A stretch of DNA of 64,000 bases, taken from positions 736,001 to 800,000 of the forward strand of contig JBBCGK010000001.1 in the NCBI GenBank assembly GCA_037200965.1, in the 5' to 3' direction. This document shows positions 5,561 to 54,180 of this stretch, piece after piece; positions within the stretch are counted from its first letter, which is position 1; each line of letters begins with the position of its first letter. The position numbers and the translations under genes were made by a program. Below the pieces are notes generated by a model, which saw nothing but the letters and a program-made list of their open reading frames with translations, did not search any database and had not been told where the DNA came from. This DNA is from a bacterium. Its GTDB lineage: Bacteria > Patescibacteriota > Minisyncoccia > Phycocordibacterales > Phycocordibacteraceae.

Positions 5561-6096
5561 CCAGAAGCCCGCTCGTACCCATAGCGCTCATCCTCATCGC
5601 GACGGGGATATTTTTCCTGTATGTCCGCCCGACCTATAACGGTTCGGTTGCCGCGATGCAGGCTCAGATCGCCGGGTACGACGACGCGCTTACCGCCGCC
5701 GCGGCATACTCGGCCAAAGCGAACGAGCTTGCCGCCGCGAGAAACTCCATTCCTCCCGAAAACCTCAAGCGGCTCGAGACATTCCTTCCCGACGGCGCGG
5801 ATAATGTCCAGATCATCCTCGATCTCGACGCGCTCGCGGCGCGCTCGGGCCTTTCGCTCGCGGACTTCACGACGAGCGCGCCCCGGGCCGAAGACGCGAA
5901 CGCGCCCACGGGGAACCAGATCGAACCCGTGGACCTTACGGTAACCGCGACCGGAACGTACGGGGCGCTGCGCACCTTCATGGCCGGGGTCGAGAAGAGC
6001 CTCCGGCTTATCGACATCATGAACCTGACCGTAAAGCAGGCCGATTCCGGCGTGTACACGTACCAGCTGGGACTGCGCTTCTATTCCCTCCACTGA
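5557..6096 (+). CDS. pilO: PilO-like pilus assembly protein
   Basis: ATGA overlap with pilN. N-terminal TM, then coiled coil and a C-terminal domain, in the gene order expected for pilO. Confidence 0.55.
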   Translation: MTRSPLVPIALILIATGIFFLYVRPTYNGSVAAMQAQIAGYDDALTAAAAYSAKANELAAARNSIPPENLKRLETFLPDGADNVQIILDLDALAARSGLSLADFTTSAPRAEDANAPTGNQIEPVDLTVTATGTYGALRTFMAGVEKSLRLIDIMNLTVKQADSGVYTYQLGLRFYSLH

Positions 6097-6097: not shown

Positions 6098-6421
6098 ATG
6101 AACCTCAAACTTCCAAACAACGGAGCCGCGATCATAGGATTCATCGTCGTACTCGTGCTTGGCGGCGGGTATCTGTTCTTTTTCAGTACTCCCGCGGATG
6201 CGCCGCTCTCCGAGACGAACGTCGCTGGAAACGAAGCAGAGCAGCGCTTCGCTTCGCTTGTCACGCAACTCACCTCCATCAGTTTCGATACGCGTATTTT
6301 CTCCGACCCGCGTTTCGGCGCGCTCACCGACATGACGACGCCGGTAACCCCGGAAGCGGCCGGGCGGGCCGACCCGTTCGCCCCGTTCCCGGGAGCTTCC
6401 CGCACGACGACGGGACCGTAG
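6098..6421 (+). CDS. small membrane protein in pilus operon (PilP-like position)
   Basis: It starts 2 nt after the pilO stop. It has an N-terminal TM and a Pro-rich tail. Confidence 0.4.
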   Translation: MNLKLPNNGAAIIGFIVVLVLGGGYLFFFSTPADAPLSETNVAGNEAEQRFASLVTQLTSISFDTRIFSDPRFGALTDMTTPVTPEAAGRADPFAPFPGASRTTTGP

Positions 6422-13968: not shown

Positions 13969-16500
<2,532 letters not shown>

Positions 16501-17176: not shown

Positions 17177-17470
17177 ATGGCGACGAAGGAAGACGTGCAA
17201 AAGCTCGCAAGCCTTGCCCGCATCAGGGTGGTCGAGGAGGAACTTCAGAAATTCACCGAAGAATTCGACTCCATTCTCGCGTACGTGGGGAAGCTCGAGG
17301 AGCTTGCGATCGATACGAAAGGGGCGCAGGGGCTTCCGGCGCTCCGGAACGTATTTCGCGAAGACGGCGAACCGCACGAGTCCGGGGCGTACACCGGAAA
17401 GCTTGTCGAGGCATTTCCCGGGAAGGAGGGCAATCTGCTTTCCGTAAAGCAGATCATCACGCATGACTAA
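17177..17470 (+). CDS. gatC: Asp/Glu-tRNA amidotransferase subunit C
   Basis: 97 aa with a LARIRV…EEL…ILAYV motif. It overlaps gatA by 8 nt. Confidence 0.8.
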   Translation: MATKEDVQKLASLARIRVVEEELQKFTEEFDSILAYVGKLEELAIDTKGAQGLPALRNVFREDGEPHESGAYTGKLVEAFPGKEGNLLSVKQIITHD

Positions 17471-18884
17471 GCCGAACGAACTTTCGATAACGGAAGCCGC
17501 GCGCGCTTTGCGCGCCGGGGAATTCTCCGTGCGCGAACTCTGGGATGCGTGCGCCTTAGCCGCGCGCGAAAGGAACCCGGAGCTCAATGCCTATCTCGAA
17601 TTGTTTGAAGCGGACGAGGAAGCGATAGCGTCCGCGCAAAAGCGCATCGACGAAGAAGGGGATGGGGCGCCCATGCTCTGCGGCATTCCGCTTGCGATCA
17701 AAGACAACATCATGATCGAGGGCAGGGTCGCGAGCGCCGCCTCGAAGATGCTTGAGAATCACCGGGCGGCGTATGACGCGACTGTTATCAAAAAGCTTAA
17801 GGAGGCGGGCGCGCTCTTCGTCGGCCGCACGAACCTCGATGAATTCGCGATGGGAAGCTCGACCGAGAGTTCCGCATTCGGCCCTTCAAGAAATCCCTAT
17901 GACACCTCGAGAGTTCCCGGCGGTTCTTCCGGCGGCTCGGCGAGCGCAGTCGCCGCGCATATGGCGCTCGGCGCGCTTGGGACCGACACTGGCGGATCCA
18001 TCCGGCAACCCGCGGCGCACACGGGCCTTGTCGGCCTCAAGCCGACTTACGGTGCCGTTTCCCGTTCCGGCCTCATCGCGCTCGGCAGCAGCCTCGACCA
18101 GGCCGGGCCTCTTGCGAAAACCGTTGCCGACGCGAAAGCGATCTTTGACGCGATTCGCGGCGCGGATCCGCTTGATGCGACCAGTGTCCCGAACGGACTG
18201 TATGCGCCGCGAGCGCTTAGCCAAACGCTTCGCATCGGCGTGCCGCGCCATCTGCTTGAATCGGGCATCGACGAAGACGTAAAGGCTTCTTTTGAGGCCG
18301 CCCTTGCCGTTCTCCAGAAAGCCGGGCATCAAATCGTCGACGTGTCGCTTCCGACGAGCTCCTATGCGCTTCCCGTGTATTACGTCATCATGCCAGCTGA
18401 GGCGTCGACCAATCTCGCCCGCTACGACGGCATACGGTACGGTCTTGCGAAACGCGGCGAGACGCTGCTTTCGGACTATATCGAAAGCCGGTCAAAAGGG
18501 TTCGGTCCCGAAACGCGCCGCCGCATTCTTCTTGGCACCTTCGTACTTTCTTCCGGTTATATCGACGCGTATTACCGCAAGGCGCATGCGGCACGCACGC
18601 TTCTGACTTCCGAATACGGCGCGGCGTTCGAGGCGTGCGATGTGATCGCGTTTCCGACGACGCCATCCCCGGCATTCAAATTCGGCGAGAAGAGCGATCC
18701 GGTTTCCATGTACCTTGAAGATATCTTTACGGTCACGGCGAACCTTACAGGCATGCCGGCAATTTCCGTCCCTATGGGGACCGTGGAGCGGGATGGAAAG
18801 GCCCTTCCGGTCGGCATCCAGTTCACCGCACCCAAGGGCGGGGAAGACTCCTTGTTTACAATCGGCGCGGCTGTGACCACATAG
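17463..18884 (+). CDS. gatA: Asp/Glu-tRNA amidotransferase subunit A (amidase family)
   Basis: Amidase signature GGSSGGSASAVAA and a length of 473 aa. Confidence 0.9.
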   Translation: MTKPNELSITEAARALRAGEFSVRELWDACALAARERNPELNAYLELFEADEEAIASAQKRIDEEGDGAPMLCGIPLAIKDNIMIEGRVASAASKMLENHRAAYDATVIKKLKEAGALFVGRTNLDEFAMGSSTESSAFGPSRNPYDTSRVPGGSSGGSASAVAAHMALGALGTDTGGSIRQPAAHTGLVGLKPTYGAVSRSGLIALGSSLDQAGPLAKTVADAKAIFDAIRGADPLDATSVPNGLYAPRALSQTLRIGVPRHLLESGIDEDVKASFEAALAVLQKAGHQIVDVSLPTSSYALPVYYVIMPAEASTNLARYDGIRYGLAKRGETLLSDYIESRSKGFGPETRRRILLGTFVLSSGYIDAYYRKAHAARTLLTSEYGAAFEACDVIAFPTTPSPAFKFGEKSDPVSMYLEDIFTVTANLTGMPAISVPMGTVERDGKALPVGIQFTAPKGGEDSLFTIGAAVTT

Positions 18885-18900: not shown

Positions 18901-19482
18901 ATGCAAACCACGGGCGACGTCAACTTTCTCAACCTCGAGTGGTGGTTCCGCCTCATCTACGAACTTGCGTTCGGCTCCCATTCCTTCTCGTCCGCCGGTT
19001 TCGGCGCCTTCCTTTCGCGGGTGTGGCTGTGGGTGACGGTCGTCGGCTCGATCGTCGCGGTTCTCTCGCTCGTCGTAATCGCGTATTGCATCATGCGGCT
19101 CTTCGAACTCCGGAAGAAGGAATCCGAAGCGCTCGGGCCCGTTATCCATCTCGCAAAAGATAACGGTGCGAATCCTCGCTGGGTCCATATACAGTCGCTC
19201 ATGGACGGCGCGAATCCGAGCCAGTGGAGAGAAGCGATACTCGAAGCCGACATCCTGCTTGAGGATATGCTTAAGGAGCAGCGCTATACGGGCGCCGGAG
19301 TGGGGGAGATGCTTAAACAGGTTGAGCGCTCGGATTTCAATACGCTCGACGCGGCGTGGGAGGCACACCGGGTCAGAAACGACATCGCGCACCGCGGCTC
19401 TACGATCGAGCTCACCGAACAGCTCGCCCGGCGTACCATCGCCAAGTATGAATCCGTATTCAGGGAGTTCGACATGATTTAG
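18901..19482 (+). CDS. hypothetical membrane protein
   Basis: One TM helix and coding-like composition. Confidence 0.4.
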   Translation: MQTTGDVNFLNLEWWFRLIYELAFGSHSFSSAGFGAFLSRVWLWVTVVGSIVAVLSLVVIAYCIMRLFELRKKESEALGPVIHLAKDNGANPRWVHIQSLMDGANPSQWREAILEADILLEDMLKEQRYTGAGVGEMLKQVERSDFNTLDAAWEAHRVRNDIAHRGSTIELTEQLARRTIAKYESVFREFDMI

Positions 19483-19580: not shown

Positions 19581-19872
19581 TCAAAAAGACAGCGGGGTAG
19601 AGGAGTGGTACCTCGGGAGGCTTGAATTATTCGGGCGTGCGCGCGAGCAATTGCGCGTAAGATCATCTGCCAAATTCGGTGAAACCCTCCTGCGCGAAAG
19701 CACAGACGGCAACGCCGAGCCAAGCCCTAAGAGCAATCGAAGGGAAGGTGTAGAGACTAGACGGTAGACATCCCGCAGGGGATGAAGGCATAGTCCAGAC
19801 CACAAATCATTCGTGCGAGAGCGGCGAAAGCCGTAGTGGTAGGCATAACCTCCAGACTCGGGTTCGAATCCC
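19581..19872 (+). tRNA. split tRNA(CAU) (Met or Ile2) gene. Exon 1 is 19581-19612, exon 2 is 19834-19872. The CCA end is not encoded
   Basis: Exon 1 supplies the acceptor strand AGCGGGG, U8, D-arm GAGG/AGUGGUA/CCUC, anticodon-stem strand GGAGG and loop CU. Exon 2 supplies CAUAA, anticodon-stem strand CCUCC, T-arm UCGGG-UUCGAAU-CCCGA and acceptor strand CCCCGCA + A73. Joining the exons gives a canonical cloverleaf with anticodon loop CU-CAU-AA. Confidence 0.75.
19613..19833 (+). ncRNA. group I self-splicing intron (IC3-like, Azoarcus tRNA-Ile intron-like) in the anticodon loop
   Basis: The intron follows a U and ends with G. It contains CAAAUUCGGUGAAACC, GGCAACGCCGAGCCAAGC and AAGGUGUAGAGACUAGACGG, recalled from memory as near-identical to the Azoarcus group I ribozyme. 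A P2-like hairpin GCGCGAGCAAUUGCGCG is present. Confidence 0.7.
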
Positions 19873-19946
19873 GACCCCGCAACAAGCTTGTGATAGTGGA
19901 ACCCAGACCGGTGCGCCTGCAAAAGCAGTTCAGTATCGGTCCGGAT

Positions 19947-19975
19947 CAAAAACAGAAAAGACGCCCACGGGCGTC
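19947..19975 (+). terminator. rho-independent terminator downstream of intron-tRNA
   Basis: Stem AAAAGACGCCC-acg-GGCGUCUUUU followed by a U-tract. Confidence 0.7.
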
Positions 19976-20054
19976 TTTTCTGTTGGAATATAAATAAAAG
20001 GAGCATATAAACGACAAGGCCCCGATATACATCGGAGCCTCTAGGCGTCGCACT

Positions 20055-20471
20055 TTATGCAGACTTTCGTCTACGATACGCTGGAATATTCAATCCGCCA
20101 TACATCTTGCGGTACTCGGCTGTATCCACTTCGGGATCGCGGTCAAGTCGCTCGTAAATAACGGACGAGAGAAAATACGCCACTACTTTGCGGAGACACT
20201 CCACAGGCGAACTCCAAGTCTTCGCAAACTCAATCATTTCCTGTGGAAGAACCATAAACGCTTCGTCTTGTTCGAGCGCTCCCATGATTTTGCCCAGGGT
20301 TTCCGGGCTCATCTTGGCAACGTCACCTGCGAGCAGGCCAGGAAAAATCTGGTGGAGAAACAAATGGCGCTTGCCAAGCTGATAATCCTCCGGGTAAGGC
20401 TGATCGTAGACTTGGTCGAAGCGATTGCGACGAATCAGGTCGTTGGTGAGGTCTTCAATGTACTTCCTCAT
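20055..20471 (-). CDS. hypothetical protein (low-GC islet)
   Basis: 138-aa ORF in an AT-richer segment between the tRNA and the IS. Confidence 0.4.
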   Translation of the reverse strand: MRKYIEDLTNDLIRRNRFDQVYDQPYPEDYQLGKRHLFLHQIFPGLLAGDVAKMSPETLGKIMGALEQDEAFMVLPQEMIEFAKTWSSPVECLRKVVAYFLSSVIYERLDRDPEVDTAEYRKMYGGLNIPAYRRRKSA

Positions 20472-20640: not shown

Positions 20641-21482
20641 GGCATTCAGACTCAGTTGGCACAGCTCCCATACCATGGAAGCTATGTACACTCTCAAACA
20701 GATACCGAGCGAAGCGCAGATTCGGAAGTTCTTGCGCCGTACGCTCTTCGGCAAGAACGTGTTCTGTCCTTCGTGCCGGTCACGAAGGATCGAAAAGCAA
20801 CAGGAGCGGTATCGGTGCCGCACGTGCCGCATCCGCTTCTCCCTCACCTCGCACACCTGGCTCTCGAATCTGAAGCTCCCCCTCGAGCAGTGGTGGGTGC
20901 TGCTCTGGTGCTGGACCATACAAGAGCCGGTACGCCAAGCCGTCACGCTCTCTGGCCTTCCGGAACGCACGGTCAGGCGTTGGTATGCCACCTTCAGGCT
21001 CCATTTGCCCCAGGAAACCCATGTGCTCGAACGTATCGTCCAAATGGACGAAGCGTACTTCAAAAACGCCGCGCTCGTCATGGCCAAGCAGAAAGGTACG
21101 AGAAAGCTCGCCTTCGAGGTATTCCACGGCAGGTACCCAACCAAGACTGATGCCGTCTCATTCCTGTTCGAGCATGTGGCGCCGGGAAGCGAGCTCTGGA
21201 CCGATGGCGGGTCGATATACAAGAACATCAGCCAACGCTGGCCGGTGTCGCACCAGCGAGATATTCACTCCAAATTCGAGTTCGAGCACACCTCTGAGAT
21301 CGAGGGAATGTTCGGGGTATACCGCACCTTCGTGCGCAGGATGTATCATCATCACTGGAGCGAGAACTTGGAGGAATACGTGAGGGAATTCTGCTTCAGA
21401 TTTTCCTCGCCGGAAATCTTCAATTCGCCCCGTATTTACTTAACGAAATCACTCACGCTTGTGCCAACTTGTTCTTAATACC
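20641..21482 (+). mobile_element. IS1595-family insertion sequence (~842 bp) with ~25-bp imperfect terminal inverted repeats and 10-bp flanking direct repeat CCGATGGTGG
   Basis: The left end GGCATTCAGACTCAGTTGGCACAG matches the reverse complement of the right end (GGTATTAAGAACAAGTTGGCACAAG). Direct repeats lie at 20631-20640 and 21483-21492. Confidence 0.7.
20675..21478 (+). CDS. IS1595 family transposase (ISXO2-like DDE, N-terminal zinc ribbon)
   Basis: N-terminal CPSC…CRTC zinc ribbon. Length and layout match the ISXO2-like transposase domain. Confidence 0.75.
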   Translation: MEAMYTLKQIPSEAQIRKFLRRTLFGKNVFCPSCRSRRIEKQQERYRCRTCRIRFSLTSHTWLSNLKLPLEQWWVLLWCWTIQEPVRQAVTLSGLPERTVRRWYATFRLHLPQETHVLERIVQMDEAYFKNAALVMAKQKGTRKLAFEVFHGRYPTKTDAVSFLFEHVAPGSELWTDGGSIYKNISQRWPVSHQRDIHSKFEFEHTSEIEGMFGVYRTFVRRMYHHHWSENLEEYVREFCFRFSSPEIFNSPRIYLTKSLTLVPTCS

Positions 21483-28025: not shown

Positions 28026-31000
28026 ATGCTCTTCCTCCTTGTACGCACACTCATAAGACCGCATACGTCCCTTCGCGCCTTTCCTTCCTTGGCAGGGAAG
28101 GGCTTCCTGTTCTTGTTCGTGCTTTGGTCCTGTTCGATAAGCGCGCTGCCTGCATACGCGGCATGGGACGGACAGCCCTATGCGCCGGGCGCAACGCTTG
28201 ACCCGGAGTGCGGGCCGAGCGACTCTAATTGCAAGACGCTTGCGAGCGCGGACGCGACGACGCTTGAAGGCAGGTCCGGAAGCTATTACCTTGCCAACTC
28301 CTTCTCGACGACCTCGGCCGCGTATTTCCTTTCTGACAATCCGGGGCTCTCGTTCGCGACCACCAGTTCTGACTATTGGCTCGCGCATCGGTCCACGTCC
28401 GACCTTCCGGAAGGCTCGCGCCTCTACTACACCGATGCCCGCGCGGACGCGCGCATTCTTGCGACAACTACTCTTGCGAATATCATCTCGCTTCCGGGCT
28501 TGTCTTTGTCCGCGTCGCAGCTTACTGGCTTCGGTATTCCTTTCTACAATTTCTTTCACGCGACGACGACCGATGCGCTCGCGGAAGGTTCCCTGCATCG
28601 CTACTACAGCGACGTGCTCGCCCGCGGAGCGCTTGGCGTATCTGCCGGGGCTCTCGCGTATGACAGCGGCACGGGAATCCTTTCGGTTGCGGGCGGATAT
28701 ACGATTCCTTTATCAGCGTCCACGACGGAGTGGGGCGAGGCATATGACAACCGCATCACGTCGGCCTCGGCGCCTCTCACGATCGCGAACCGCGAGATAA
28801 GCCTCGGCATTGTTGATGCGGGGCACGGCGGCACCGGCCTCGCCTCGTACAATCCGGGCGCACTTCTGTATGCCGATGCCGACGGAAACCTCACGACGCT
28901 TTCGCCCGGTTCTTCCGGTACCGTGCTTAAGATCGCGGGCGGCGTCCCGACCTGGGGCACGGATCTTTCAAGCGGCGGCGGGGGAGGAGCCGTAGCCTGG
29001 GCGACGACATCCGACAGCCTCGCGATCTATCCGATGGACAGCACGAACGTCGTCATCGTGGGCGCAAGCGCGACATCGTCGGCGACGAGCGTCTTTGAAG
29101 TGCACGGGAGGTCGTATTTCACGACCAATGTCGGCATCGGCACGACTTCTCCGCTCTCGGCGCTTTCCGTCGCGGGGAGCGGCTTCTTCACCGGCAACCT
29201 GACTTCGGCCAATATCACCGCCACCGGAACGCTTTCAGTCTCGGGTGCTGGCACGTCGACGTTTGCCGGGCCGTTCTTAGCAGGGAATCTTGCGGTCGCC
29301 GGACTTCCCGCGGGCCTTATAAAGGCCGGGGCGGGCGGGTATCTCCGGGGCGCCGTCGCGGGAACGGATTATTTCGATCCTGCCGCGTTCGGTTCAACTT
29401 TCTATTCTTTTTTTCACGCGACGACGACCGATGCGCTTGCCGAAGGTTCGGTGCATAAGTATTGGAGCGATACGCTCTTCGACAACCGCCTCTCCGCGAC
29501 CACGTCGCTTCCGGGCCTCTCTTCCATCGGTTCGTATACCGGGCTCATCGGCGCGAACAACGGTTCCATGTACCAAATCGCCACTTCGACCAACTTCGTG
29601 ACATCGATCGCGGCCGCATACCCGCTCTCCGTTTCCGGACCAGCCGGGGCGGTGACAATCTCGACCGCGCTCGCTACCACCACATTCCAGCACTCATACG
29701 GTTCCGCGCAGATCGGACAAATCATCCTTGCCACTTCAAGCGCGGCAACGAGTAACGGCATCACGGTGGGGCAGACCATCACGAACTCCGGCGGCGTCTT
29801 CACGTTCGCTCCGGCGGTATCCGTATCGAACATCCCCAATGCCGCCCTGCAGAATTCCGCCGTCACCGTCAACGGCACCCTGATCCCGCTTGGCGGCTCG
29901 GGTACTGTCGCCGCCGCTTCTTCCACGCTCCTTGGAGATAACAATACTTTCTCGGGCGGCAATACGTTTTTGAGCACCATCACCGGCTCCGTTTCTGGCA
30001 ATGCCGGCACCGTTACGAACGGCGTATACACGACTACTTTCGGCGGCCTTTTCGACAACCGCCTCTCCGCGACCACGTCGCTTCCGGGCCTTACGGCGGT
30101 TTCGTCCGGCCTCACGGGCGTCCTTAAGGCGGCGGCGGGCTCTCTCTCGGCGGCGGCACCGGGGATCGATTTCGAAAATCCGCTTTCGTTCCTCTATCCG
30201 CTCGCGCGCACCGCAAACAGCGTAAGCCTTGCCTTCGGGACGACAACTTCAAACACTTGGGGAGGAACCCAGACTTTCACCAACAACCCGATACTCGGCA
30301 CTCTCACCGGTCTCTTCTACGGAAACAACGGATCGCTTGCGGCGACGGCGACATCCTCCGTCACCAGCGGCACCGGCATCGGCTTTTCAGGCACGCCGGG
30401 AGCGCTTGTCGGCGGTACTCCGCTTACGATTACGAATACCGGCGTGACGTCGAATATTGCCGGGACCGGCATCAGCGTCTCGGGCGCGACCGGCGCCGTT
30501 ACGATAAGCGCGGCGAACGTGCCGAACAGCGCGCTTGAGAACTCGACGATCGGGCTTGCTTCGGGCGACTCCTCCCTTACGGTTTCCGGCTCGCCCGCCT
30601 CTCTTGGAGGCTCGCTTTCCGCCTCCCTTAACACCGCGCATCCGAATACGTTCACCGCGCTTCAGCAATTCAGCGCAAATGCGTCGACGACGGGAATCTC
30701 TTCTTCGTATGCGTCCTCGACCAAAGCCTTCCTTGGAAGCCTGTCGATAGGGAATCTGACCGGCATCCTGCGCGCGGCCGGGGGTGCCGTATCGGCCTCG
30801 CTCGTGTCCCTCGCTTCCGACGTGACCGGAGTGCTCGGCGTTATAAACGGCGGGACGGGATGGGATTCGATACAGTCCGGCAGCATCCCGTACGGAAACG
30901 GCGCCGGGGCGCTCGCCACCACGAGCCCGGGAACCAACGGGCAGACGCTCGCGCTTGTCGCCGGAGTTCCGGCCTGGATCGCGACGACAACCGCGGGCAC

Positions 31001-34000
31001 CGGCCTTACGTATTCCGGCGGCAGCTTCAATGTGAATACGGCGCAGAATGTCGCGAAGCTTTCGAACCTCACGGGGAACGGATTCGTCAAAACTATAAAC
31101 GGCGACGGCACGCTTTCGGTCGATACCAATACCTACCTCGCCTCCATTGGTCCCGCAGGACAAAGCCAGAGCGGTCCTGCGGTCGCCATTGCCTCCTCGA
31201 CCGATTCTGCGACCGGCCTTATCTCGGGCGTCGTGATAACCGGAAGCGCGAATACGCTTACCTGGAAGGCCGTGCTCTCCGGCGTCTTGAGTGCCGCAAA
31301 CGGCGGCACCGGATCGACGACGCTTTCGGGAATCCTCAAAGGAAACGGCACGGGAGTGCTTATGACCGCGGTTCCGGGAACCGACTATCAGGCGGCGGGG
31401 AACTATCTCACCGCGCTTACCGGTGACATCTCCGCGTCGGGTCCGGGTTCCGCCGCCGCGACGCTCGCGACCGTGAACGCGGATACGGGGTCGTTCGGGG
31501 GTTCGACCGCCATCCCGACTTTTGTCGTAAACGGGAAAGGGCTCGTCACATCCGCGGGCACCGCGGCGGTTATCGCGCCCGCGGGAACGCTCACCGGAAC
31601 CGTACTTGCTTCGAACATCCTCGCTTCTTCGCTTACATCCGTCGGAACGCTCGGCACGCTCTCCGTTTCCGGCCAGGCTTCGCTTGCGGGCGCGAGCTCG
31701 ACCGCCTTTTCCTCGTCCTATGCGTCTTCGACCAGTGCGTTCTTCGGAAACCTGTCCGTCGGAAGTCTTTCGGGAATACTGCGCGCGACCGCCGGAGCGG
31801 TCTCCGCGGGCGCGGTGAATCTTGCCTCGGAAATATCCGGGATGCTCGGCGTCGCAAACGGCGGCACGGGCGCGGGCTCGTTTGCGGCAGGCTCCCTCAT
31901 CTACGGAAACGGTACGGGCCCGCTTCAGAGCGCCGCGACCTCGTCCGTTTCAAACGGCGCTGGCATCTCGGTCTCGGGCGCCGCCGCCGTGGTCGGGAGC
32001 GGGGGACTCACCATCACCAACACGGGCATCACGTCCGTCACGCCGCAATTCGGTGCGGCCATCAGTAACGGCGGGCTAACCGTCGCGTCCTCGACGGCGG
32101 GCACCGACTTTTCGATAACCGGATCGGGAAGCACGATCACGTTCAATCTTCCGACCGCGTCTGCCGCAAACCGCGGCTTGCTTTCCTCCGCCGACTGGAG
32201 CGCCTTCAGCGCCAAGCAGGGCGCGCTTACGTTCGCGTATCCGCTCCAGAATAGCGCGAATACCGTATCGCTCGCCTTCGGGACGACGACCGCGAATACC
32301 TGGGGACCGGTGCAAACTTTCACGAACGTTCCCGTGCTCGGCACTCTTTCGGGAATCATTTATGGGAATAACGGATCGCTTGCCGCGACCGCCACTTCGA
32401 CGCTTGGCGTCGCGCTTGCGGACACTACGGGCTCGCTCCCGGTCGACCGGGGAGGCACCGGATCGACGACGCTCGGCGGCATTTTGAAGGGAAACGGAAC
32501 TTCCGGCATCGCGACCGCCGTCCCCGGCATCGATTATCAGCCCGCCGGGAGCTATCTCACCGGCAACCAGACGGTTACGCTTTCGGGCGACGTCTCGGGA
32601 AGCGGCGCCACTTCGATCACGACCGCGATCGGGGCGGGGAAGGTGACGAATGCGATGCTCCTGGGCGCTATTGCCGCCGCGAAGCTCATCGGAACCGATA
32701 TCACGACCGTCGGGACGATCGTAAGCGGCGTGTGGCAGGGCTCCGTGATCGGATCAGCCTACGGCGGGGCGGGAGCCGTAAGCGGAATACTCAAAGCGAA
32801 CGGTTCCGGCAACGTCTCCGCCGCCTCCGCCGGAACCGACTACGTCGCTCCGAACTCCTCGCCCACATTTGCGGGCCTCACGCTCCTAAGCGCGCTTCCC
32901 GTCGCAAGCGGCGGGACGGGCTGGAGCGCGATACAGTCCGGCAGCATCCCGTACGGAAACGGTTCCGGTGCCCTCGCGACTACCTCGAGCGGGGCGGCGG
33001 GGAGCGTGCTCGCGCTTGTCGCCGGAGTTCCGGCCTGGGTCGCGACGACCACGTTCTCCACGGGCCTTACGTATACGGCCGGAAGCGTGACCGTGAACAC
33101 CGCACAGAGCATCGCGAAGCTTTCGAACCTGACAAGCAATGGATTCGTCAAAACTATAAACGGCGACGGCACGCTCTCGGTCGATACGAACACCTACCTC
33201 GCCTCCATTGGTCCCGCAGGACAAAGCCAGAGCGGCCCCGCAATTACGATCGCAACTTCGACCGCGGGAACCGACATATCGGTGACGGCTTCCGGCAATA
33301 CGATCACGTTCAACCTCCCGACCGCATCTGCCGCAAACCGCGGCTTGCTTTCCTCGTCCGATTGGACGACATTCAACGGCAAAGTGTCGACCGGCGCGTT
33401 CACATCCTCCGGCCTCACCCTTTCGACCGGTAAGCTTCTCGGAAGAAGTTTGGACGGTACGGGAGCGGCCGAAGAGATAACGGTCGGGAGCGGCCTCTCT
33501 CTTTCTGGCGGGACTCTCTCCGCGTCTGGGAGCGGCATCAGCGCACTTGGTCCTTCGGGACAAACCCAAAGCGGTGCGACGGTCACCATTGCCACCTCGA
33601 CAAGCCTTGCAAACGGCGTCACGTCCGCGCTTGTGGTCGTGGGTTCTTCGAACACGCTTATGTTCACTCCTTCCGTTTCCGGCGTGCTCACGGTTCCTGG
33701 GGGAGGCACCGGTGCCGGTACGCTCACGGGACTCGTTTCGGGAAACGGCACGAACGCTTTCACCGCGACCGCGAACGGCGCAAACGGCCAGGTGCTTGCT
33801 ATGTCCGCCGGAGCGCCGACCTGGGTCGCAACGACCACGTTCTCGACCGGACTTACGTACACGGCGGGCACGGTGACGGTCAACACGGTGCAAAGCGTCA
33901 CGAAGCTTTCGAATCTCGCCACGAACGGATTCGTGAAAACGATCAACGCCGACGGCACGCTCTCGATCGACACCAACACCTATCTCACCTCTGCCCTCAC

Positions 34001-35105
34001 CTCAATAGGTCCCGCCGGTCAGGTACAGAACGGCCCGGCTATCGTTATCGCCACCTCGACGACCGCATTTAACGGCATTACGGTGGGCGACACGATAACC
34101 GGTTCGGGGAACACGCTTACGTGGAAGCCCAGCTGGAGCGGTTCGCTCAGCGTCCCTGGCGGCGGCACGGGGGCGACTTCGTTCGGGCAGGGCTGGATAT
34201 TCTCAAGCGGCGGCACGGGTGCCCTTGCTGCCTCGACAAGCCCGACCGTGAACTATCTTATCGCCACCTCGACGACCGCCGCTTCGATCTTCAATTACCG
34301 CGTCGGCATCGGTACGAACGCCCCCGCAACCGCGCTTGACGTGAACGGCGATATCACGATCGAGACCTTGACCTGCAACACATCGCTCGTCGGACTGGGC
34401 ACCGACGCGAACGGCAAGATCTATTGCAAGAGCGTCGTAGGTTCCGATGAGCGGCTTAAGTCGAATATCGAAAGTCTCGGCGACGAAAATGGCCTTGCTC
34501 TCATAGACTCGCTGCGCCCTGTCTCCTATGACTGGAAGGACCCGAACGTGTATGGCGGCATGTCCGGCCTCCAGTACGGGTTCATCGCGCAGCAGGCGCT
34601 TTCTGCCGCGCCGACTCTCGTCGGCACGACGTCGCCGACAGAACTGACGCCCGACGTCACGTACACGTTCAACTATTTCGGCCTCATCGCGCCCCTCGTG
34701 AAAGCGACACAGCAGCTTGACGCGCGGTTCGGCGCGATTGCTTCAACGAGCGCGGATGCGTCTCCGACGTCTTTTGCTCAGGCATTCTTTGGCCGTCTTC
34801 GGGAATGGTTCGCCGACGCGGCAAACGGAATCGAGGACTTCTATGCGAATCGTGTCCATACTTCGCAACTATGCTTAGCAGTCTCCGGCGGGGAAGAGGA
34901 ATGCTTTACGGGCGACGAGCTGAAAGCCCTTAAGGAGAAAGCCGGACAGCATGACAAGGTTCCGCCGCCCGGCATCGGGCCTGTCATCATCGAGGATGTT
35001 CCGCCGCCGGACACCACTGCCTCATCGTCCGAGCCGGAATCAGAAGCCGCTGCGGCTATGCCAGTGCCTCCCGATCCCGCTACTGACTTACCCGCGCCCG
35101 AGTAA
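28026..35105 (+). CDS. giant (2359 aa) secreted surface protein, Gly/Thr/Ser-rich repeat region, C-terminal intramolecular-chaperone (peptidase S74-like) domain and Pro-rich tail
   Basis: Signal-peptide-like N-terminus, then an AAWDGQPYAPGATLDPECGPSDSNCK module. Long near-identical internal repeats. C-terminal VVGSDERLKSNIESL…LRPVSYDWK…GFIAQQ resembles the autoproteolytic tail-fibre chaperone domain, followed by a PPPG/PPPD tail. Confidence 0.8.
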   Translation: MLFLLVRTLIRPHTSLRAFPSLAGKGFLFLFVLWSCSISALPAYAAWDGQPYAPGATLDPECGPSDSNCKTLASADATTLEGRSGSYYLANSFSTTSAAYFLSDNPGLSFATTSSDYWLAHRSTSDLPEGSRLYYTDARADARILATTTLANIISLPGLSLSASQLTGFGIPFYNFFHATTTDALAEGSLHRYYSDVLARGALGVSAGALAYDSGTGILSVAGGYTIPLSASTTEWGEAYDNRITSASAPLTIANREISLGIVDAGHGGTGLASYNPGALLYADADGNLTTLSPGSSGTVLKIAGGVPTWGTDLSSGGGGGAVAWATTSDSLAIYPMDSTNVVIVGASATSSATSVFEVHGRSYFTTNVGIGTTSPLSALSVAGSGFFTGNLTSANITATGTLSVSGAGTSTFAGPFLAGNLAVAGLPAGLIKAGAGGYLRGAVAGTDYFDPAAFGSTFYSFFHATTTDALAEGSVHKYWSDTLFDNRLSATTSLPGLSSIGSYTGLIGANNGSMYQIATSTNFVTSIAAAYPLSVSGPAGAVTISTALATTTFQHSYGSAQIGQIILATSSAATSNGITVGQTITNSGGVFTFAPAVSVSNIPNAALQNSAVTVNGTLIPLGGSGTVAAASSTLLGDNNTFSGGNTFLSTITGSVSGNAGTVTNGVYTTTFGGLFDNRLSATTSLPGLTAVSSGLTGVLKAAAGSLSAAAPGIDFENPLSFLYPLARTANSVSLAFGTTTSNTWGGTQTFTNNPILGTLTGLFYGNNGSLAATATSSVTSGTGIGFSGTPGALVGGTPLTITNTGVTSNIAGTGISVSGATGAVTISAANVPNSALENSTIGLASGDSSLTVSGSPASLGGSLSASLNTAHPNTFTALQQFSANASTTGISSSYASSTKAFLGSLSIGNLTGILRAAGGAVSASLVSLASDVTGVLGVINGGTGWDSIQSGSIPYGNGAGALATTSPGTNGQTLALVAGVPAWIATTTAGTGLTYSGGSFNVNTAQNVAKLSNLTGNGFVKTINGDGTLSVDTNTYLASIGPAGQSQSGPAVAIASSTDSATGLISGVVITGSANTLTWKAVLSGVLSAANGGTGSTTLSGILKGNGTGVLMTAVPGTDYQAAGNYLTALTGDISASGPGSAAATLATVNADTGSFGGSTAIPTFVVNGKGLVTSAGTAAVIAPAGTLTGTVLASNILASSLTSVGTLGTLSVSGQASLAGASSTAFSSSYASSTSAFFGNLSVGSLSGILRATAGAVSAGAVNLASEISGMLGVANGGTGAGSFAAGSLIYGNGTGPLQSAATSSVSNGAGISVSGAAAVVGSGGLTITNTGITSVTPQFGAAISNGGLTVASSTAGTDFSITGSGSTITFNLPTASAANRGLLSSADWSAFSAKQGALTFAYPLQNSANTVSLAFGTTTANTWGPVQTFTNVPVLGTLSGIIYGNNGSLAATATSTLGVALADTTGSLPVDRGGTGSTTLGGILKGNGTSGIATAVPGIDYQPAGSYLTGNQTVTLSGDVSGSGATSITTAIGAGKVTNAMLLGAIAAAKLIGTDITTVGTIVSGVWQGSVIGSAYGGAGAVSGILKANGSGNVSAASAGTDYVAPNSSPTFAGLTLLSALPVASGGTGWSAIQSGSIPYGNGSGALATTSSGAAGSVLALVAGVPAWVATTTFSTGLTYTAGSVTVNTAQSIAKLSNLTSNGFVKTINGDGTLSVDTNTYLASIGPAGQSQSGPAITIATSTAGTDISVTASGNTITFNLPTASAANRGLLSSSDWTTFNGKVSTGAFTSSGLTLSTGKLLGRSLDGTGAAEEITVGSGLSLSGGTLSASGSGISALGPSGQTQSGATVTIATSTSLANGVTSALVVVGSSNTLMFTPSVSGVLTVPGGGTGAGTLTGLVSGNGTNAFTATANGANGQVLAMSAGAPTWVATTTFSTGLTYTAGTVTVNTVQSVTKLSNLATNGFVKTINADGTLSIDTNTYLTSALTSIGPAGQVQNGPAIVIATSTTAFNGITVGDTITGSGNTLTWKPSWSGSLSVPGGGTGATSFGQGWIFSSGGTGALAASTSPTVNYLIATSTTAASIFNYRVGIGTNAPATALDVNGDITIETLTCNTSLVGLGTDANGKIYCKSVVGSDERLKSNIESLGDENGLALIDSLRPVSYDWKDPNVYGGMSGLQYGFIAQQALSAAPTLVGTTSPTELTPDVTYTFNYFGLIAPLVKATQQLDARFGAIASTSADASPTSFAQAFFGRLREWFADAANGIEDFYANRVHTSQLCLAVSGGEEECFTGDELKALKEKAGQHDKVPPPGIGPVIIEDVPPPDTTASSSEPESEAAAAMPVPPDPATDLPAPE

Positions 35106-39693: not shown

Positions 39694-40187
39694 AGCGGAT
39701 CCTGAAGCTGTCGGCGGGCCTGGGTGCGGTCCTGCTGTGCGCGGGTATCGTTCCAGCATCCGTACATGCGGCGAGCGTGGCGCTTTCCATCCCCGACCGG
39801 TACGCGCAAGTGGATCCCGACGACCGTTTTTACTACCAGCTTAACGTCCTGTATCCGGAAAACGTCCAGCGGAGGGACCTCACCGTCACTTACCGCGTCG
39901 AGGAGGGGCAGGCGACGATCGTCAGCGGCCAGTACCTGCGGGCAGTCGAGACGCAGGCATCCTTCTCCGATTACATCGTCATTCCGACCGACGCCCGGGA
40001 AGGCCTCCATACGATAGAGATCGCGGTCACCGACGGCGACAAGCCGCTCGCGCAGGTGAGCGGAAGCTTCCAGGTCAATCCGCAGGAAGACTGGGTCATG
40101 ATCTACTTCTCGATACTTCTTGCCGCCGTGCTGCTGGTCGGCGTCGGCCTGTTCGTCGAGATCCTTATCGTGTCCCGCCGCGCATGA
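39690..40187 (+). CDS. secreted hypothetical protein with C-terminal TM anchor
   Basis: ATGA coupling and signal peptide MKRILKLSAGLGAVLLCAGIVPASVHA. Confidence 0.5.
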   Translation: MKRILKLSAGLGAVLLCAGIVPASVHAASVALSIPDRYAQVDPDDRFYYQLNVLYPENVQRRDLTVTYRVEEGQATIVSGQYLRAVETQASFSDYIVIPTDAREGLHTIEIAVTDGDKPLAQVSGSFQVNPQEDWVMIYFSILLAAVLLVGVGLFVEILIVSRRA

Positions 40188-40291
40188 CTTGTCCACACCG
40201 CGAATGCTTGAACGGGACAGGTGCTGCTAGACTCAAGAGTGTTCCGGTGTTGCGCACCGCATCTGTCCCGGGGACGATTAATTCTCGTCTC

Positions 40292-43282
40292 ATGCGCACC
40301 ATCTTCACCTCTCCTTTGCTAGCGTTCGCGGGACGCTTCACCGCGGTTTTCTTTTTCGTATTTGCAGCAAACGGTATCGTCGGTTTTCCCGCCGCGCATG
40401 CGGCATGGGACGGTAATCCGTACGAGCCCGAGGAAACACTCGATCCGGAATGCTCGCCGAATCAGGGGCAGTGCCGTATCACGCAGCCCGTCAGCGCCGG
40501 AGAGAGCGTACCGGCAGGCTCGCTTCTCTATACCGACGGTACGGATTCATGGACGACGCTTCCCATCGGCAGCGACGGCAAGGTGCTCAAGATAAGCGGC
40601 GGTTCGGTCGTCTGGGGAGACGATAACGGCGGCATCTCGTACAGCGCATCCGAACAGGGGCTGCACCTTGATGCGGGCACGCACGTGCTCTCTATCACGC
40701 TTGACGGCTCGACGCTCTCCGCGTCCGGAAGCGGACTCCGGCTTGCGGCCGCCTATCCCGGTCAGGCATCCATTACGACGCTCGGTACCATTACGACCGG
40801 CACGTGGCATGGTTCCGCAGTAGCTCCGGCCTATGGCGGTACGGGCGCGTCGTCAGCTCCCGCAAACGGCCAGCTTCTCATCGGCAACGGATCGACGTAT
40901 ACGGTCGCGAACGCGAGCGGCTCGGGCGGCATACAAATCACGAACGGTTCGGGATCGCTTGGCATCGGCCTTTCCATAAGCGGATTGTCGGCAGTCTCAA
41001 GCGCCGCGAACGGCGATTATCTCGCGCTCTACGATGACAGCGCGGGGGCGAACAGGAAGATCAGCATCAGCGACCTGTTCGCGAACGTTATCGGCTCTCT
41101 TAATTTCCAAGGCACGTGGGATGCGGATGCGAACAGCCCGTCCCTTTCCGACGGCATGTGCACGGCAAGCGAAAACGGATACTTCTATATCGTCGGCACG
41201 TCCGGAGCGACGACTCTGGGCGGCGTGTCCTCATGGGACGTGGGCGACTGGCTTATCTGCGACGGCACGGGCTGGGGCAAGGTCGCGGATACGAGCGCCA
41301 TCGCGAGTGTGTTCGGGCGCACCGGCGCGGTCACTGCTCAGAGCGGGGACTATACCGGCGACCAGATCATCAATGTCGCGGCGGGCACGATCGCCTCGAC
41401 GAACGTGCAGGGCGCCATTAACGAGCTCGCAAGCGAGAAAGAAGCGGCGATAGCGTCGGGCCTTACGACCCAGTACTGGCGCGGCGACAAGACGTGGCAG
41501 ACCTTGAATACGCTCGCGGTGGCCGAGAATCCCGCCCACCTCTATTACACCGACGCCCGCGCGAGAAACGCGTTTTCTTCGGGCAGTGCATCGCTTTCGT
41601 ACGATTCCTCGACCGGCGTCATCGCCGTTACGGGCGGATACAGCATTCCGGAATCGGGGACCATCGAAGGGGATACGCTCGTCTGGGACGGATCGAACTG
41701 GGTTCCGACCGAGGGCGCGATGTCGTTCTCTTTGTCCACCGGCCTTCTCTCGATCGATGGCACCGCCTCGTCTACCGACCTTTATATCGCGGATGATGCC
41801 ATCATAGCCTCCGCCGATATCGGATCGCTTTCCGCCGATTCGCTCTCGCTTTCCGCCGCCCTTGGCGCAGGGTCAGGCGGTACCGGCATCACGAGTCCTG
41901 TCTCGGCCGGAATTCTTATCGGTACGCAGGGAGGCGGAGCGTGGCAGCAGGTCGCGACCTCGACGCTCCGCATCGCGCTTGCCGATACGACCGGAACCCT
42001 TTCGGTCGTCAAGGGCGGTCTTGGTCTCACTGCCGCGCCTTCGTTCGGGAATCTCCTCATGGGTAACGGTTCGGGCGGCTATACTTCGGTCGCGACTTCT
42101 TCGCTCGGCCTTACGTTCTCTTCGATCGCGGGGACGCTCGGGGTTTCCGCGGGAGGAACCGGCGTAGTTTCCGCGCCTTCATTCGGGGAGCTCCTGCTTG
42201 GAAACGGCTCAGGAGGATATGCGCTCGCCGCCACCTCGACTCTCGGTCTCAATCTCTCCTCGCTTACCGGAACCCTTGGCGTCGCCGCAGGCGGTACCGG
42301 AGCGGCGAGTCTTGGCCAAGGATGGCTCTATTCGACCGGCGGCGGCATCGCGCTCTCCGCGTCCACGTCGCCGACCGTGAACTACCTTCTCGCCACCTCG
42401 ACGACGCAAGCATCCGCGATTGCCTACCGTCTCGGCGTCGGGAGTACGACGCCGCTTGCGACCCTTGCGGTTAAGGGTGCGGGAACCGGCGCGGGCGTCA
42501 CGCTTCAGACGACCGACAGCGCCGACATCGCGGGCCTTACGGTTCTCGACAAGGGATTCGTCGGCATAGGCACGACATCTCCGGTGGCTGCGCTTGCGGT
42601 GAGCGCGGCGGCCGGCGTCGCGCCGTTCGCGGTGGGTTCGTCGACGGGGGGAATCAAGCTCACCGTCGCCGCGAACGGCTTCGTCGGCGTCGGCACCTCA
42701 AGCCCTACGTATCCGCTCGACGTGCGGGGAGATGTCGGCGGAACGGTCGCGCGTTTCCAGACTACGACAAATTCGCTCTTCTGCCTCCTCTCCTCGATTA
42801 CCGGGCTTTTGAGTTGCGCATCGGACGAGCGGCTCAAGAAGGACATTACGCCGCTTGACGCGTCGACGCTCGACCAGGTCCTCGCGCTCAAGCCGGTTTC
42901 GTACCACTGGAAGACCGATGATTCTTCCGCCGGACTCAAGTATGGATTCATCGCGCAGGATGTCGAGAAGATATTTCCCGAACTCGTTTCCGCCGATCCC
43001 ACCACCGGCTACAAGTCCCTTTCCACCGGCGGCATGATGCCATACGTCGTGAAAGCTCTTCAAGAGCAGCAAGTCGAAATCGAGGATCTCAAGGCGCAGA
43101 TAGCGGTGCTTGCCGCTCATCTTCCGCATGTGTCCGGAGATGACGAAACTCCCGCACCGGTTCCTCCTTCCGGGCCCGAAGAGGAGGAAGGAAGCGTGAC
43201 CCCTCCTGTTCCTGAGGAGGAAGTTCCGGCTCCCGTACCGCCGACCGTGAATACTGACGATGCTCCGGTCGCAACTCCGTAG
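40292..43282 (+). CDS. giant (~1000 aa) secreted surface protein, paralogous architecture to 28026-35105 (shared N-terminal module, C-terminal S74-like chaperone domain, Pro-rich tail)
   Basis: Signal peptide MRTIFTSPLLAFA…AAHA|AWDGNPYEPEETLDPECSPNQGQC. C-terminal CASDERLKKDITPL…LKPVSYHWK…GFIAQD, a coiled coil, then PAPVPP repeats. An alternative ATGA-coupled start lies at 40184. Confidence 0.8.
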   Translation: MRTIFTSPLLAFAGRFTAVFFFVFAANGIVGFPAAHAAWDGNPYEPEETLDPECSPNQGQCRITQPVSAGESVPAGSLLYTDGTDSWTTLPIGSDGKVLKISGGSVVWGDDNGGISYSASEQGLHLDAGTHVLSITLDGSTLSASGSGLRLAAAYPGQASITTLGTITTGTWHGSAVAPAYGGTGASSAPANGQLLIGNGSTYTVANASGSGGIQITNGSGSLGIGLSISGLSAVSSAANGDYLALYDDSAGANRKISISDLFANVIGSLNFQGTWDADANSPSLSDGMCTASENGYFYIVGTSGATTLGGVSSWDVGDWLICDGTGWGKVADTSAIASVFGRTGAVTAQSGDYTGDQIINVAAGTIASTNVQGAINELASEKEAAIASGLTTQYWRGDKTWQTLNTLAVAENPAHLYYTDARARNAFSSGSASLSYDSSTGVIAVTGGYSIPESGTIEGDTLVWDGSNWVPTEGAMSFSLSTGLLSIDGTASSTDLYIADDAIIASADIGSLSADSLSLSAALGAGSGGTGITSPVSAGILIGTQGGGAWQQVATSTLRIALADTTGTLSVVKGGLGLTAAPSFGNLLMGNGSGGYTSVATSSLGLTFSSIAGTLGVSAGGTGVVSAPSFGELLLGNGSGGYALAATSTLGLNLSSLTGTLGVAAGGTGAASLGQGWLYSTGGGIALSASTSPTVNYLLATSTTQASAIAYRLGVGSTTPLATLAVKGAGTGAGVTLQTTDSADIAGLTVLDKGFVGIGTTSPVAALAVSAAAGVAPFAVGSSTGGIKLTVAANGFVGVGTSSPTYPLDVRGDVGGTVARFQTTTNSLFCLLSSITGLLSCASDERLKKDITPLDASTLDQVLALKPVSYHWKTDDSSAGLKYGFIAQDVEKIFPELVSADPTTGYKSLSTGGMMPYVVKALQEQQVEIEDLKAQIAVLAAHLPHVSGDDETPAPVPPSGPEEEEGSVTPPVPEEEVPAPVPPTVNTDDAPVATP

Positions 43283-46461: not shown

Positions 46462-47514
46462 CTACTTAAGCGAGCCGTATACACTCGGAATTTCAAGGCC
46501 AAGCGTCCAGAGCGAAACGCCGCGGAGCCCGTGGCTCTTCGCGAGCGCGACCTTCACTGCGACGCTCCGCGCGTTTTCATACCAAATCGTGTACCCGGTG
46601 GGGCCGTTGAAATAATGAAGGTACGGAGCCTGTGCCGTTTCGTCATAGATCATGAACGCGTCGTTCGGGTGATTCTTAAATACGTTCTGTATGCCCTCGT
46701 TCCCCCCGATGCCGACCAGCTTTCCGGTCATGTCGTTCCATTGCCAGTAGTAGAGAGGGATGCCAAGCGAGAGTTTTTCGGGTGGGATATGCGCGAGCGC
46801 GTAGTCAAGGACGCGCGTAAGCCAGGGATAGGGAGCGATAGCGCCTTTCGAGTCCGGCGCGTCATAGGACATGAGGCTTATGAAATCCGCGGAGCGCGCA
46901 AGGGCGTCGTAGTCATAAACGCCGATGAGCTTGTTCCAGAGGTCGTTCTTATAGTCGCTTGGCGTATCGGACACTTTTGAAATGACGGCGACCGAAAGCA
47001 TAAGGCCGTGCGCATGGAGCGCTTTCGCCGTTTTGGCGACGAAGGCGGAAAATCCATCCTTGTCGGCAAGTTCCATCTGCTCGAAATCTATCTGCCAGCC
47101 GATATAGCCCCGATCTTTCGCTTCGGTTATGAGCGCGCTTATGGCGGTGTCCTGCTTTTTTATATCGGTGAGGAGCGCTTTGTACGCGGCGGGGCTGAAG
47201 CTTCCGTTCGTTACGAGCGGCATCACTTGGATATTATTCTTCTTCGCGAAATCGAGTATGTCCTGATCGAGGGTTCCCGAAAGCGTGCCGTCTTCGTTTA
47301 TCGCGTACACTTGCGGCGCGAAAATGTCGATCGAGTCCGCGTGCGCGAAGAAAGACTGTTTCGCGAGCTCGCCGTCGCGATAATAGAAGAGGCGTTCGTA
47401 GTGGGGTGCGGCCGGGGTTGCTGCTAGGGCAGGTAAAGGAAGGTATACCGCTCCAAAAAACGATACAAGCACAAGGAGAACGGCCGTACGCTGCATGAGA
47501 GAGAGGGTAATCAT
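46462..47514 (-). CDS. secreted glycoside hydrolase family 18-like protein
   Basis: Signal peptide and a catalytic-region motif GYIGWQIDFEQME (DxxDxDxE variant). Confidence 0.6.
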   Translation of the reverse strand: MITLSLMQRTAVLLVLVSFFGAVYLPLPALAATPAAPHYERLFYYRDGELAKQSFFAHADSIDIFAPQVYAINEDGTLSGTLDQDILDFAKKNNIQVMPLVTNGSFSPAAYKALLTDIKKQDTAISALITEAKDRGYIGWQIDFEQMELADKDGFSAFVAKTAKALHAHGLMLSVAVISKVSDTPSDYKNDLWNKLIGVYDYDALARSADFISLMSYDAPDSKGAIAPYPWLTRVLDYALAHIPPEKLSLGIPLYYWQWNDMTGKLVGIGGNEGIQNVFKNHPNDAFMIYDETAQAPYLHYFNGPTGYTIWYENARSVAVKVALAKSHGLRGVSLWTLGLEIPSVYGSLK

Positions 47515-52735: not shown

Positions 52736-52800
52736 TTCAAGGGTTAGAACGAGACACTCATAAAGTCTAGACGGTGGCTCGACTCCACCCGCCGGCACCA
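52726..52800 (+). tRNA. tRNA(CAU) (Met/Ile2) with genomically encoded CCA
   Basis: Acceptor GCCGGCG/CGCCGGC, D-arm GUUC…GAAC, anticodon loop CU-CAU-AA, T-arm GGUGG-CUCGACU-CCACC, then A-CCA. The T-loop is non-canonical and positions 31-39 form an A·A mismatch. Confidence 0.6.
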
Positions 52801-52833
52801 AGATTCGGGCAGGACACGGTATACTGGGGGTGA

Positions 52834-53088: not shown

Positions 53089-53150
53089 AGTATCGAAGCT
53101 GCGAGAACGCGATGCCCGCGTCGTCTCGCGGCATAAGCTGGTTTTCAATT

Positions 53151-53266: not shown

Positions 53267-53281
53267 GCTTAGCAGCAAACG

Positions 53282-53662: not shown

Positions 53663-53678
53663 GAATATCGCTGGCAGC

Positions 53679-54110: not shown

Positions 54111-54180
54111 CAGAGGTAAAAAGCACTCGTAGTCCAGCTCACTGTTGTGAGAGTGCGTTCTGTGGTAAAAATCTAGGTAC

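Follow-up and report, generated by a model that had tools for sequence, protein, structure and literature searches.

The group I introns found in tRNA genes of bacteria form a class that has been known since the 1990s. Four classical kinds have been described, Leu.3Ug, Arg.5Ug, fMet.2Ug and Ile2.5Ug, all of subgroup IC3, and every fMet.2Ug intron in the curated database is IC3 (10.1101/2020.01.27.920355). The position between nucleotides 33 and 34 of tRNA-fMet is a common and previously known insertion site (PMC13011429). Here we describe a split tRNA(CAU) gene in a 64-kb stretch of bacterial DNA (the window, meaning the whole stretch that was analysed). With good confidence we read it as a chromosomal initiator-type gene into which, between U33 and C34, an IC3-family group I intron of 221 nt without an open reading frame (ORF) is inserted, a member of the fMet.2Ug class (Table 1). 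Class, site and mechanism are already established, and the window intron is an ordinary further example of them. The new points are modest: a probable Patescibacteria host from deadwood, the absence of the L2/P8 contact, and a patchy presence in relatives.

Split tRNA genes have been counted in two large surveys. Williams found 5292 of them in about 80,000 genomes (10.1101/2020.01.27.920355), and for 4934 complete genomes Nakagawa et al. (2026) report 333 split tRNAs (PMC13011429). These counts do not agree with an initial annotation of the window, which had called bacterial tRNA group I introns rare. The second survey covers 95 complete Patescibacteria genomes, in which the tRNA introns were mostly of subgroup IA at 35/36 in tRNA-Asn or tRNA-Asp and none was assigned to IC; two Microgenomatia genomes had a Met(CAU) gene cut at 33/34 (PMC13011429).

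The split tRNA gene and its predicted spliced junction

Both halves of the tRNA were read directly in the sequence, with U8, A14 and the D-loop GG. The acceptor helix pairs 19592-19597 with 19875-19880, the anticodon stem is GGAGG/CCUCC and the T arm is GGUUCGAAUCC. The 3' exon lacks a terminal CCA, the bases that follow it being CAA. ARAGORN read the joined exons as a 72-nt tRNA-Met(CAU). On the genomic sequence its default mode showed no tRNA at the locus, and its intron mode found both halves, named the gene tRNA-Ser(UGA) and set the insertion at loop positions 35/36. Default tRNA finders thus miss the gene and ARAGORN's intron mode misnames it, so that the genome would seem to be without an initiator tRNA, or to have a spurious tRNA.

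The tRNA features and the CAU identity given in the initial annotation were all recovered. Its coordinates were not: all of them lie 10 bases too low, the interval 19581-19872 standing for a gene at 19591-19882, and its acceptor pairing of 19582-87 with 19865-70 falls on CAAAAA and GAATCC, which do not pair.

Table 1. Features at and around the split tRNA gene (positions in the window)
Feature	Position	Strand	Details
LigA	14476-16500		followed by GatC and GatA (17463-18884)
193-aa ORF (orf193)	18901-19482		tRNA starts 109 nt after
Split tRNA(CAU) gene	19591-19882	+	two halves 221 bases apart, read in sequence
tRNA 5' exon	19591-19622	+	AGCGGGGUAGAGGAGUGGUACCUCGGGAGGCU; positions 1-33: acceptor, D arm, anticodon stem 5' strand, C32, U33
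Group I intron	19623-19843	+	221 nt, after U33, ends with G19843 (omega G); Rfam RF00028, splice-site rule, covariation
P1	19620-19636	+	exon G31-C32-U33 (19620-22) with internal guide sequence GGC (19634-36)
P2	19639-19658	+	hairpin, 7 pairs, loop AGCAAU (not a GNRA tetraloop)
P3	19666-71 with 19763-68	+	encloses P4-P6 and P7 5' strand
P4	19676-81 with 19713-18	+	
P5	19685-86 with 19708-09	+	P5 extension with GAAA tetraloop 19696-99
P6	19719-21 with 19747-49	+	
P6a	19725-28 with 19741-44	+	several pair types
P7	19755-59 with 19791-95	+	GACUA with UAGUC; encloses P3 3' strand and all of P8
P8	19769-19784	+	plain hairpin, 6 pairs, loop GCAG, without 11-nt tetraloop receptor
P9.0	19799-803 with 19836-40	+	encloses P9 hairpin
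P9	19821-25 with 19830-34	+	hairpin, GAAA tetraloop 19826-29; double changes at three pairs versus L105
tRNA 3' exon	19844-19882	+	CAUAACCUCCAGACUCGGGUUCGAAUCCCGACCCCGCAA; starts CAUAACCUCC, ends CCCCGCAA; C34 A35 U36 to discriminator A73
Hairpin	19954-19981		AGAAAAGACGCC-CACG-GGCGTCTTTTCT, 12 pairs, A run before, T run after; between tRNA and convergent ORF

The Rfam covariance model for group I introns (RF00028, Intron_gpI) matched 19614-19815 over its full length (1-253), reaching 58.8 bits where the gathering score is 50 (E 2.4e-12 over the 64-kb window). The same gathering score was passed by the relatives L105, L113, L071 and L050 (L-numbers denote the loci of relatives). The match ends before the true 3' end is reached, since the window has a longer P9 region than the model. 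The intron starts with UGAAUU and ends with GUAGG. No ORF of at least 50 aa was found inside it, and a 141-aa minus-strand ORF that spans it (19581-20006) showed no Pfam match and is absent from the genes called in the public record of a metagenome-assembled genome (MAG).

Group I introns follow a U and end in G. Eight cuts are possible in the window's anticodon loop, and the one after U33 (19622) alone gives a U before the 5' site together with a G (G19843) at the end of the intron; it leaves the anticodon loop CUCAUAA. At least 120 metagenome contigs contain the predicted 26-mer junction, CCTCGGGAGGCT/CATAACCTCCAGAC (other forms GGGAGGCU/CAUAACCUCC and GGGAGGCT/CATAACCTCCAGACTCGGGTTCGAATCCCGA; the slash marks the joint), without an interruption. 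Their tRNA is the same, AGCGGGG...CCCCGCAA, and among the contigs listed 79 have a gatA homologue upstream (up to 77% amino-acid identity) and 95 a homologue of the 193-aa ORF upstream. They are intron-less alleles of the same locus.

Most of what the initial annotation had claimed for the intron was borne out. The covariance check it proposed gave a score above threshold, both splice-site hallmarks and the CU-CAU-AA loop are in place, the P3-P9 core has canonical pairs and shows covariation among homologues, and the intron is free of ORFs at the 50-aa cut-off.

Fold of the intron and covariation among homologues

Helices were assigned with the guidance of the RF00028 alignment and an alifold of ten relatives. 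All 56 of the listed pairs from P1 to P9 are canonical in the window. The single-sequence minimum free energy (MFE) fold recovers P1, P2, P4, P5, P6a, P7, P8 and P9, at -82.7 kcal/mol (z = -2.7 versus shuffles). In P1, which is present in the MFE fold with seven of seven pairs canonical, U33 (19622) forms a wobble with G19634 at the 5' splice site, C32 pairs with G19635 and G31 with C19636, and four further pairs internal to the intron are closed by a UUA loop. P7 is the helix that holds the guanosine-binding site. Its five pairs are all canonical, appear in the MFE fold and do not vary among homologues, which is partly an effect of the search pattern, since this included P7's 5' strand.

That pattern was an 18-mer, GGTGTAGAGACTAGACGG, which showed at least 120 loci in a scan of 185,579 species genomes. 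ARAGORN in intron mode reported split tRNA genes around almost all of the listed loci, and these were sorted by testing the eight possible cuts of each anticodon loop for the two marks of a group I intron, a U ahead of the 5' site and a G as the last intron base. Among the matches listed, the majority class was tRNA-Leu(UAA) cut after U34, and a further class was tRNA-Arg cut after U36. The Azoarcus-type class, tRNA(CAU) cut after U36, was represented by L004, L055, L063, L067 and L087, and tRNA(CAU) cut after U33, as in the window, by L016, L022, L050, L070, L071, L078, L079, L105 and L113.

For covariation, 81 homologues were aligned and projected on the window, giving 37 core pairs. In these pairs 92.4% of the cells were paired, compared with 26-44% when the 3' partners were slid by 1-3 columns and 80.9 ± 0.3% after column shuffles, and double changes were seen at 20 of the 37. 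Each position of P3 was paired in 80 or 81 of the 81 homologues, with CG, GC, TA and AT all occurring at four of its six pairs. A comparison of the window with L105, its closest relative among the matches listed, showed pair-keeping double changes in P2, P3, P8 and P9; in P2, four pairs differ either at both bases or as G-U versus A-U. Conservation in the 80 homologues reaches at least 95% at 72 columns. The window conforms at 68 of them, and the four deviating columns all lie in L2, J2/3 and P8.

Those columns mark a missing tertiary contact. About 95% of the 80 homologues have an L2 GGAAAC and a P8 CCUAAG...UAUGG receptor, whereas the window intron does not have this Azoarcus-type IC3 architecture, in which the L2 GAAA docks in the 11-nt P8 receptor. 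The loss removes one tertiary clamp of the Azoarcus fold, and such a natural loss of a canonical tetraloop-receptor contact is of possible interest for work on how small group I ribozymes fold. In the window and in L105 the P5 extension ends instead in a GAAA tetraloop (19696-19699 in the window), which may serve as a replacement contact.

The introns of other relatives showed further variety. At 33/34 of an elongator-type tRNA(CAU), L016 has an intron of 620 nt and L070 one of 622 nt, each with an antisense ORF (150 aa in L016; truncated, at 96 aa, in L070) whose CxxC and HH...CNCH motifs give it the look of an HNH endonuclease; the 150-aa ORF of L016 had no Pfam match at E 0.01. In L011, two copies of the core motif stand about 460 bp apart on opposite strands (5654-5671 on the plus and 6129-6146 on the minus strand), one of them in a split tRNA-Leu and the other not resolved by ARAGORN.

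Weighing the alternatives

Several observations weigh against an active intron in an initiator gene. The GAAA tetraloop of L2 and the 11-nt receptor of P8 are both absent, from the window as from L105 and L113. A search by eye for a P10 pairing of the 3' exon with the guide region gave nothing convincing. Of the three G:C pairs expected of an initiator anticodon stem, G30:C40 and G31:C39 are present and 29:41 is A-U, as it also is in L105, L113 and the intron-less alleles among the matches listed; initiators with AU/GC/GC occur in some Mycoplasma. The consensus scan showed no promoter-like site between orf193 and the tRNA, which makes co-transcription with the gat genes likely. Finally, 64 kb of the genome is covered, and a second, intact initiator tRNA gene may lie elsewhere.

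The interrupted tRNA is nonetheless very probably an initiator. There is no Watson-Crick pair at 1:72, where A1 (19591) stands opposite A72 (19881). The D stem pairs G10-A11-G12-G13 with C22-C23-U24-C25 and so contains A11:U24, a trait of bacterial initiators such as E. coli tRNA-fMet. The acceptor, GCGGGG/CCCCGC with A73, is that of L071, a classical initiator.

It is improbable that the host is instead an elongator tRNA-Met, or a lysidine-modified tRNA-Ile2 (CAU) as in Azoarcus. The A29-U41 pair speaks for such a tRNA, as do several relatives with a 33/34 intron that are GGGCC-type, Ile2-like tRNAs (L079, L022 and L050), and similar Patescibacteria genes are labelled simply 'Met (CAU)' in the 2026 survey (PMC13011429). 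However, A11:U24 and the acceptor shared with L071 argue against it, and the 1:72 mismatch is kept across about 110 of the intron-less alleles among the matches listed, whose position 1 is either A or C. A separate CAU tRNA of the window (52726-52797) shows the elongator pattern, with G1-C72 and U11:A24.

Two side observations concern these tRNAs. In the intron-less alleles among the matches listed (the metagenome contigs L123-L242), position 1 is mostly A and is C in about 14 of 120, and both mismatch A72. The elongator-type Met(CAU) gene opens a plus-strand tRNA cluster (52726-54254) that continues with Asp(GUC), Thr(GGU) and Thr(CGU) and lies in a stretch of lower G+C, at about 53% versus about 60% elsewhere.

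Still less probable is that the intron is a decaying relic unable to splice, which would make the gene a pseudogene and leave the work to an intact initiator tRNA gene at another place in the genome. The missing L2 and P8 elements would suit a relic, and so would the 64-kb coverage of the genome and the frequency of intron-less alleles of this tRNA in relatives. Against this, all helices of the intron are intact and canonical, the highly conserved columns are kept in the proportion given above, and U-1 and the omega G are in place. Both exons are intact, with an anticodon arm identical to that of working alleles. The L2/P8 state is common to L105 and L113, with compensatory changes elsewhere in the intron, an indication of selection for structure throughout a lineage that has diverged. 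From these features of the sequence we infer that the window copy is spliced in the cell.

A cut elsewhere in the loop is scarcely credible: the first intron base is a U just as U33 is, and each of the two faces a G in P1, the Rfam alignment sets the conserved U-G on the second U (19623), and ARAGORN -i reports its 35/36 cut as tRNA-Ser(UGA), but cutting after the second U with omega G19843 would give an 8-nt loop, the ARAGORN cut has neither a U before the intron nor a G at its end and yields a tRNA without the long variable arm of Ser, the introns of relatives that start with C set the register after U33, and the CUCAUAA junction occurs in the at least 120 uninterrupted genes. The relatives in question are L113, L022 and L078, whose introns align with the same guide-sequence Gs and allow no alternative register. 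The guide base also covaries with the exon: opposite position 31 it is C with G31 in the window, L105, L113, L022, L050 and L078, and where the exon has A31, as in L079 and an Acidobacteriota intron from the literature, it is U.

With U33 as the 5' splice site, the pathway that we propose for the window is the standard mechanism of group I introns. The precursor would probably be transcribed together with gatC-gatA-orf193, and the intron would fold into P1-P9. The exon bases G31-C32-U33 would pair with the guide GGC (19634-36), setting the U33-G wobble at the 5' splice site, and free guanosine bound in P7 would attack after U33. The terminal G19843 would then occupy the same P7 pocket, and the freed 3'-OH of U33 would attack before C34, giving a 71-nt tRNA with the loop CUCAUAA and releasing the intron. 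CCA would be added after splicing.

A more far-reaching proposal can be made, and we hold it to be very unlikely: that this is the sole initiator tRNA gene of a reduced Patescibacteria genome, so that all initiation would depend on a ribozyme, with the intron acting as an RNA-level gate that ties initiator supply to guanosine nucleotides and having been acquired, as an IC3 intron, from another phylum.

Comparison with known bacterial tRNA introns

The window intron occupies the classical tRNA-fMet site and its class is fMet.2Ug. The initial annotation had placed the insertion after U33, 3 nt upstream of the Azoarcus site. The position stands, whereas its presentation as unusual does not, 33/34 being the standard site in tRNA-fMet.

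Among the closest described systems is the cyanobacterial tRNA-fMet intron of the Synechocystis PCC 6803 type. It shares with the window the initiator tRNA(CAU) as host type, the U33/C34 site, U-1 and the omega G, and the core together with its 3' end, ...GAAAGC.GUAGUGGUAAG/CAUAA. In contrast to the window intron, which is 221 nt long and has no homing endonuclease gene, introns of this type measure 639-655 nt; position 1 of the tRNA is C in them and A in the window, and the host is a cyanobacterium, whereas that of the window is probably a member of the Patescibacteria. Among our homologues, the CGCGGGG-type initiator tRNA of L071 has an intron of 639 nt after U33, and the 147-aa ORF of this intron matches I-Ssp6803I (PDB 2OST, E 6e-47; Pfam PDDEXK_5), the endonuclease of the Synechocystis tRNA-fMet intron.

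The Azoarcus intron was compared by way of the Azoarcus-type introns of other Betaproteobacteria (L004, L055, L063, L067 and L087). Like the window intron, these are small (204-223 nt) and without ORFs, lie in the anticodon loop of a CAU tRNA, and have the same helix set P1-P9 with a GAAA tetraloop in L9. They are inserted after U36, the window intron after U33. Three core blocks that the initial annotation had quoted as near-identical to Azoarcus correspond to 19671-19686, 19708-19725 and 19745-19764. The first two showed 0-2 mismatches to the Azoarcus-type introns, and the third matches them because it was part of the search pattern. Against the Azoarcus sequence itself, in a version not taken from a database record, the blocks show 1, 0 and 0 mismatches. 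Over aligned columns, the identity of the window intron was 53-57% to Azoarcus-type introns, 65-67% to tRNA-Leu introns, 66% to L113 and 74% to L105. The label 'Azoarcus-type' is a loose one: it fits the core blocks and the proposed membership in the IC3 family, and less well the intron as a whole, given the overall identity and the absent L2 tetraloop and P8 receptor.

The tRNA-Leu introns have the same core and covarying helices, with an identity to the window above that of the Azoarcus type. They differ in host (tRNA-Leu), in site (34/35) and in possessing both the L2 tetraloop and the P8 receptor. Assignment of the window intron to subgroup IC3 is by similarity: it has Azoarcus-type core blocks and is 57% identical to an intron labelled IC3 (PMC13011429 Table S5), so that the label is a putative one.

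The 33/34 introns of the two Microgenomatia genomes align with the window intron through P3-P8, at 50-54% identity. The window intron shares the core of introns that are labelled IC3 in that survey's own table (PMC13011429). An IC3-like intron in the tRNA-fMet of a probable member of the Patescibacteria thus stands against the survey's complete genomes, where no intron of this group was assigned to IC (PMC13011429).

One host tRNA was seen with introns at two sites. L079, from a Candidatus Accumulibacter MAG, has an Ile2-like tRNA body, GGGCC...AGAGGACU-CAU-AAUCCUU, cut after U33, and nearly the same body is cut after U36 in L004, L055 and L087 (Polynucleobacter and other Betaproteobacteria). 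One tRNA species can thus host an intron at either position.

Genomic setting, source and distribution

The split gene lies downstream of the gat genes and orf193 (Table 1). The flanking ORFs 18901-19482 and 20055-20471 matched no NCBIfam or Pfam family. A blastn search of the locus against a phage collection gave no match, and a search against a plasmid collection gave just distant gatA and fasciclin matches, so that the locus belongs to the chromosome and to no known mobile element. Near the gene, a scan for promoter and terminator consensus gave no signal exceeding chance; a single promoter-like site, located within the intron, was at chance level. The hairpin downstream of the tRNA (Table 1) is probably the terminator of a gatCA-orf193-tRNA unit, to judge from its stem and T run, and it looks like a two-way terminator. 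It was not listed by the consensus scan because the scan extends the stem into the T run.

The source of the DNA could be narrowed down by GatA. An identical GatA protein is present in the NCBI MAG GCA_015655515.1 and in the run SRR10968228, which is a beech deadwood metagenome (PMC11613949). For two of the four samples of that study, metatranscriptomes are listed as well (SRR10968251 and SRR10968250). The closest intron-bearing relatives among the matches listed, L105 (Candidatus Saccharibacteria) and L113 (Candidatus Kaiserbacteria), share the order gatA-orf-tRNA, and their GatA proteins are 74% and 61% identical to that of the window. NCBI places Kaiserbacteria in the Patescibacteria group. 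Many of the intron-less alleles among the matches listed come from 0.1-0.2 µm groundwater filter fractions. From the relatives and the sample, the host is probably a member of the Patescibacteria.

In a rough neighbour-joining tree of GatA, made from the matches listed, the three intron-bearing loci were scattered among intron-less ones, and the nearest neighbour of the window was the intron-less L204. Such a patchy distribution needs several losses or several gains. The window intron has no endonuclease gene, so a gain would need reverse splicing, or else recombination with an allele that bears the intron. A conserved locus that occurs in intron-plus and intron-minus forms could serve for a study of gain and loss without a homing endonuclease.

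Some other genes of the window were noted. A 267-aa ORF on the plus strand (20675-21478), 0.8 kb downstream of the tRNA gene, has an IS1595-family transposase domain and a zinc ribbon. Two long plus-strand ORFs, 28026-35105 (2359 aa) and 40184-43282 (1032 aa), showed one Pfam match each, a Peptidase_S74 chaperone domain near the C terminus, and may encode self-processing surface or fibre-like proteins. The window also contains one gene of glycosyl hydrolase family 18 (GH18, chitinase-type), on the minus strand at 46462-47514; a Patescibacteria genome of the order UBA9983_A with a single, highly expressed chitinase was described in the deadwood study (PMC11613949).

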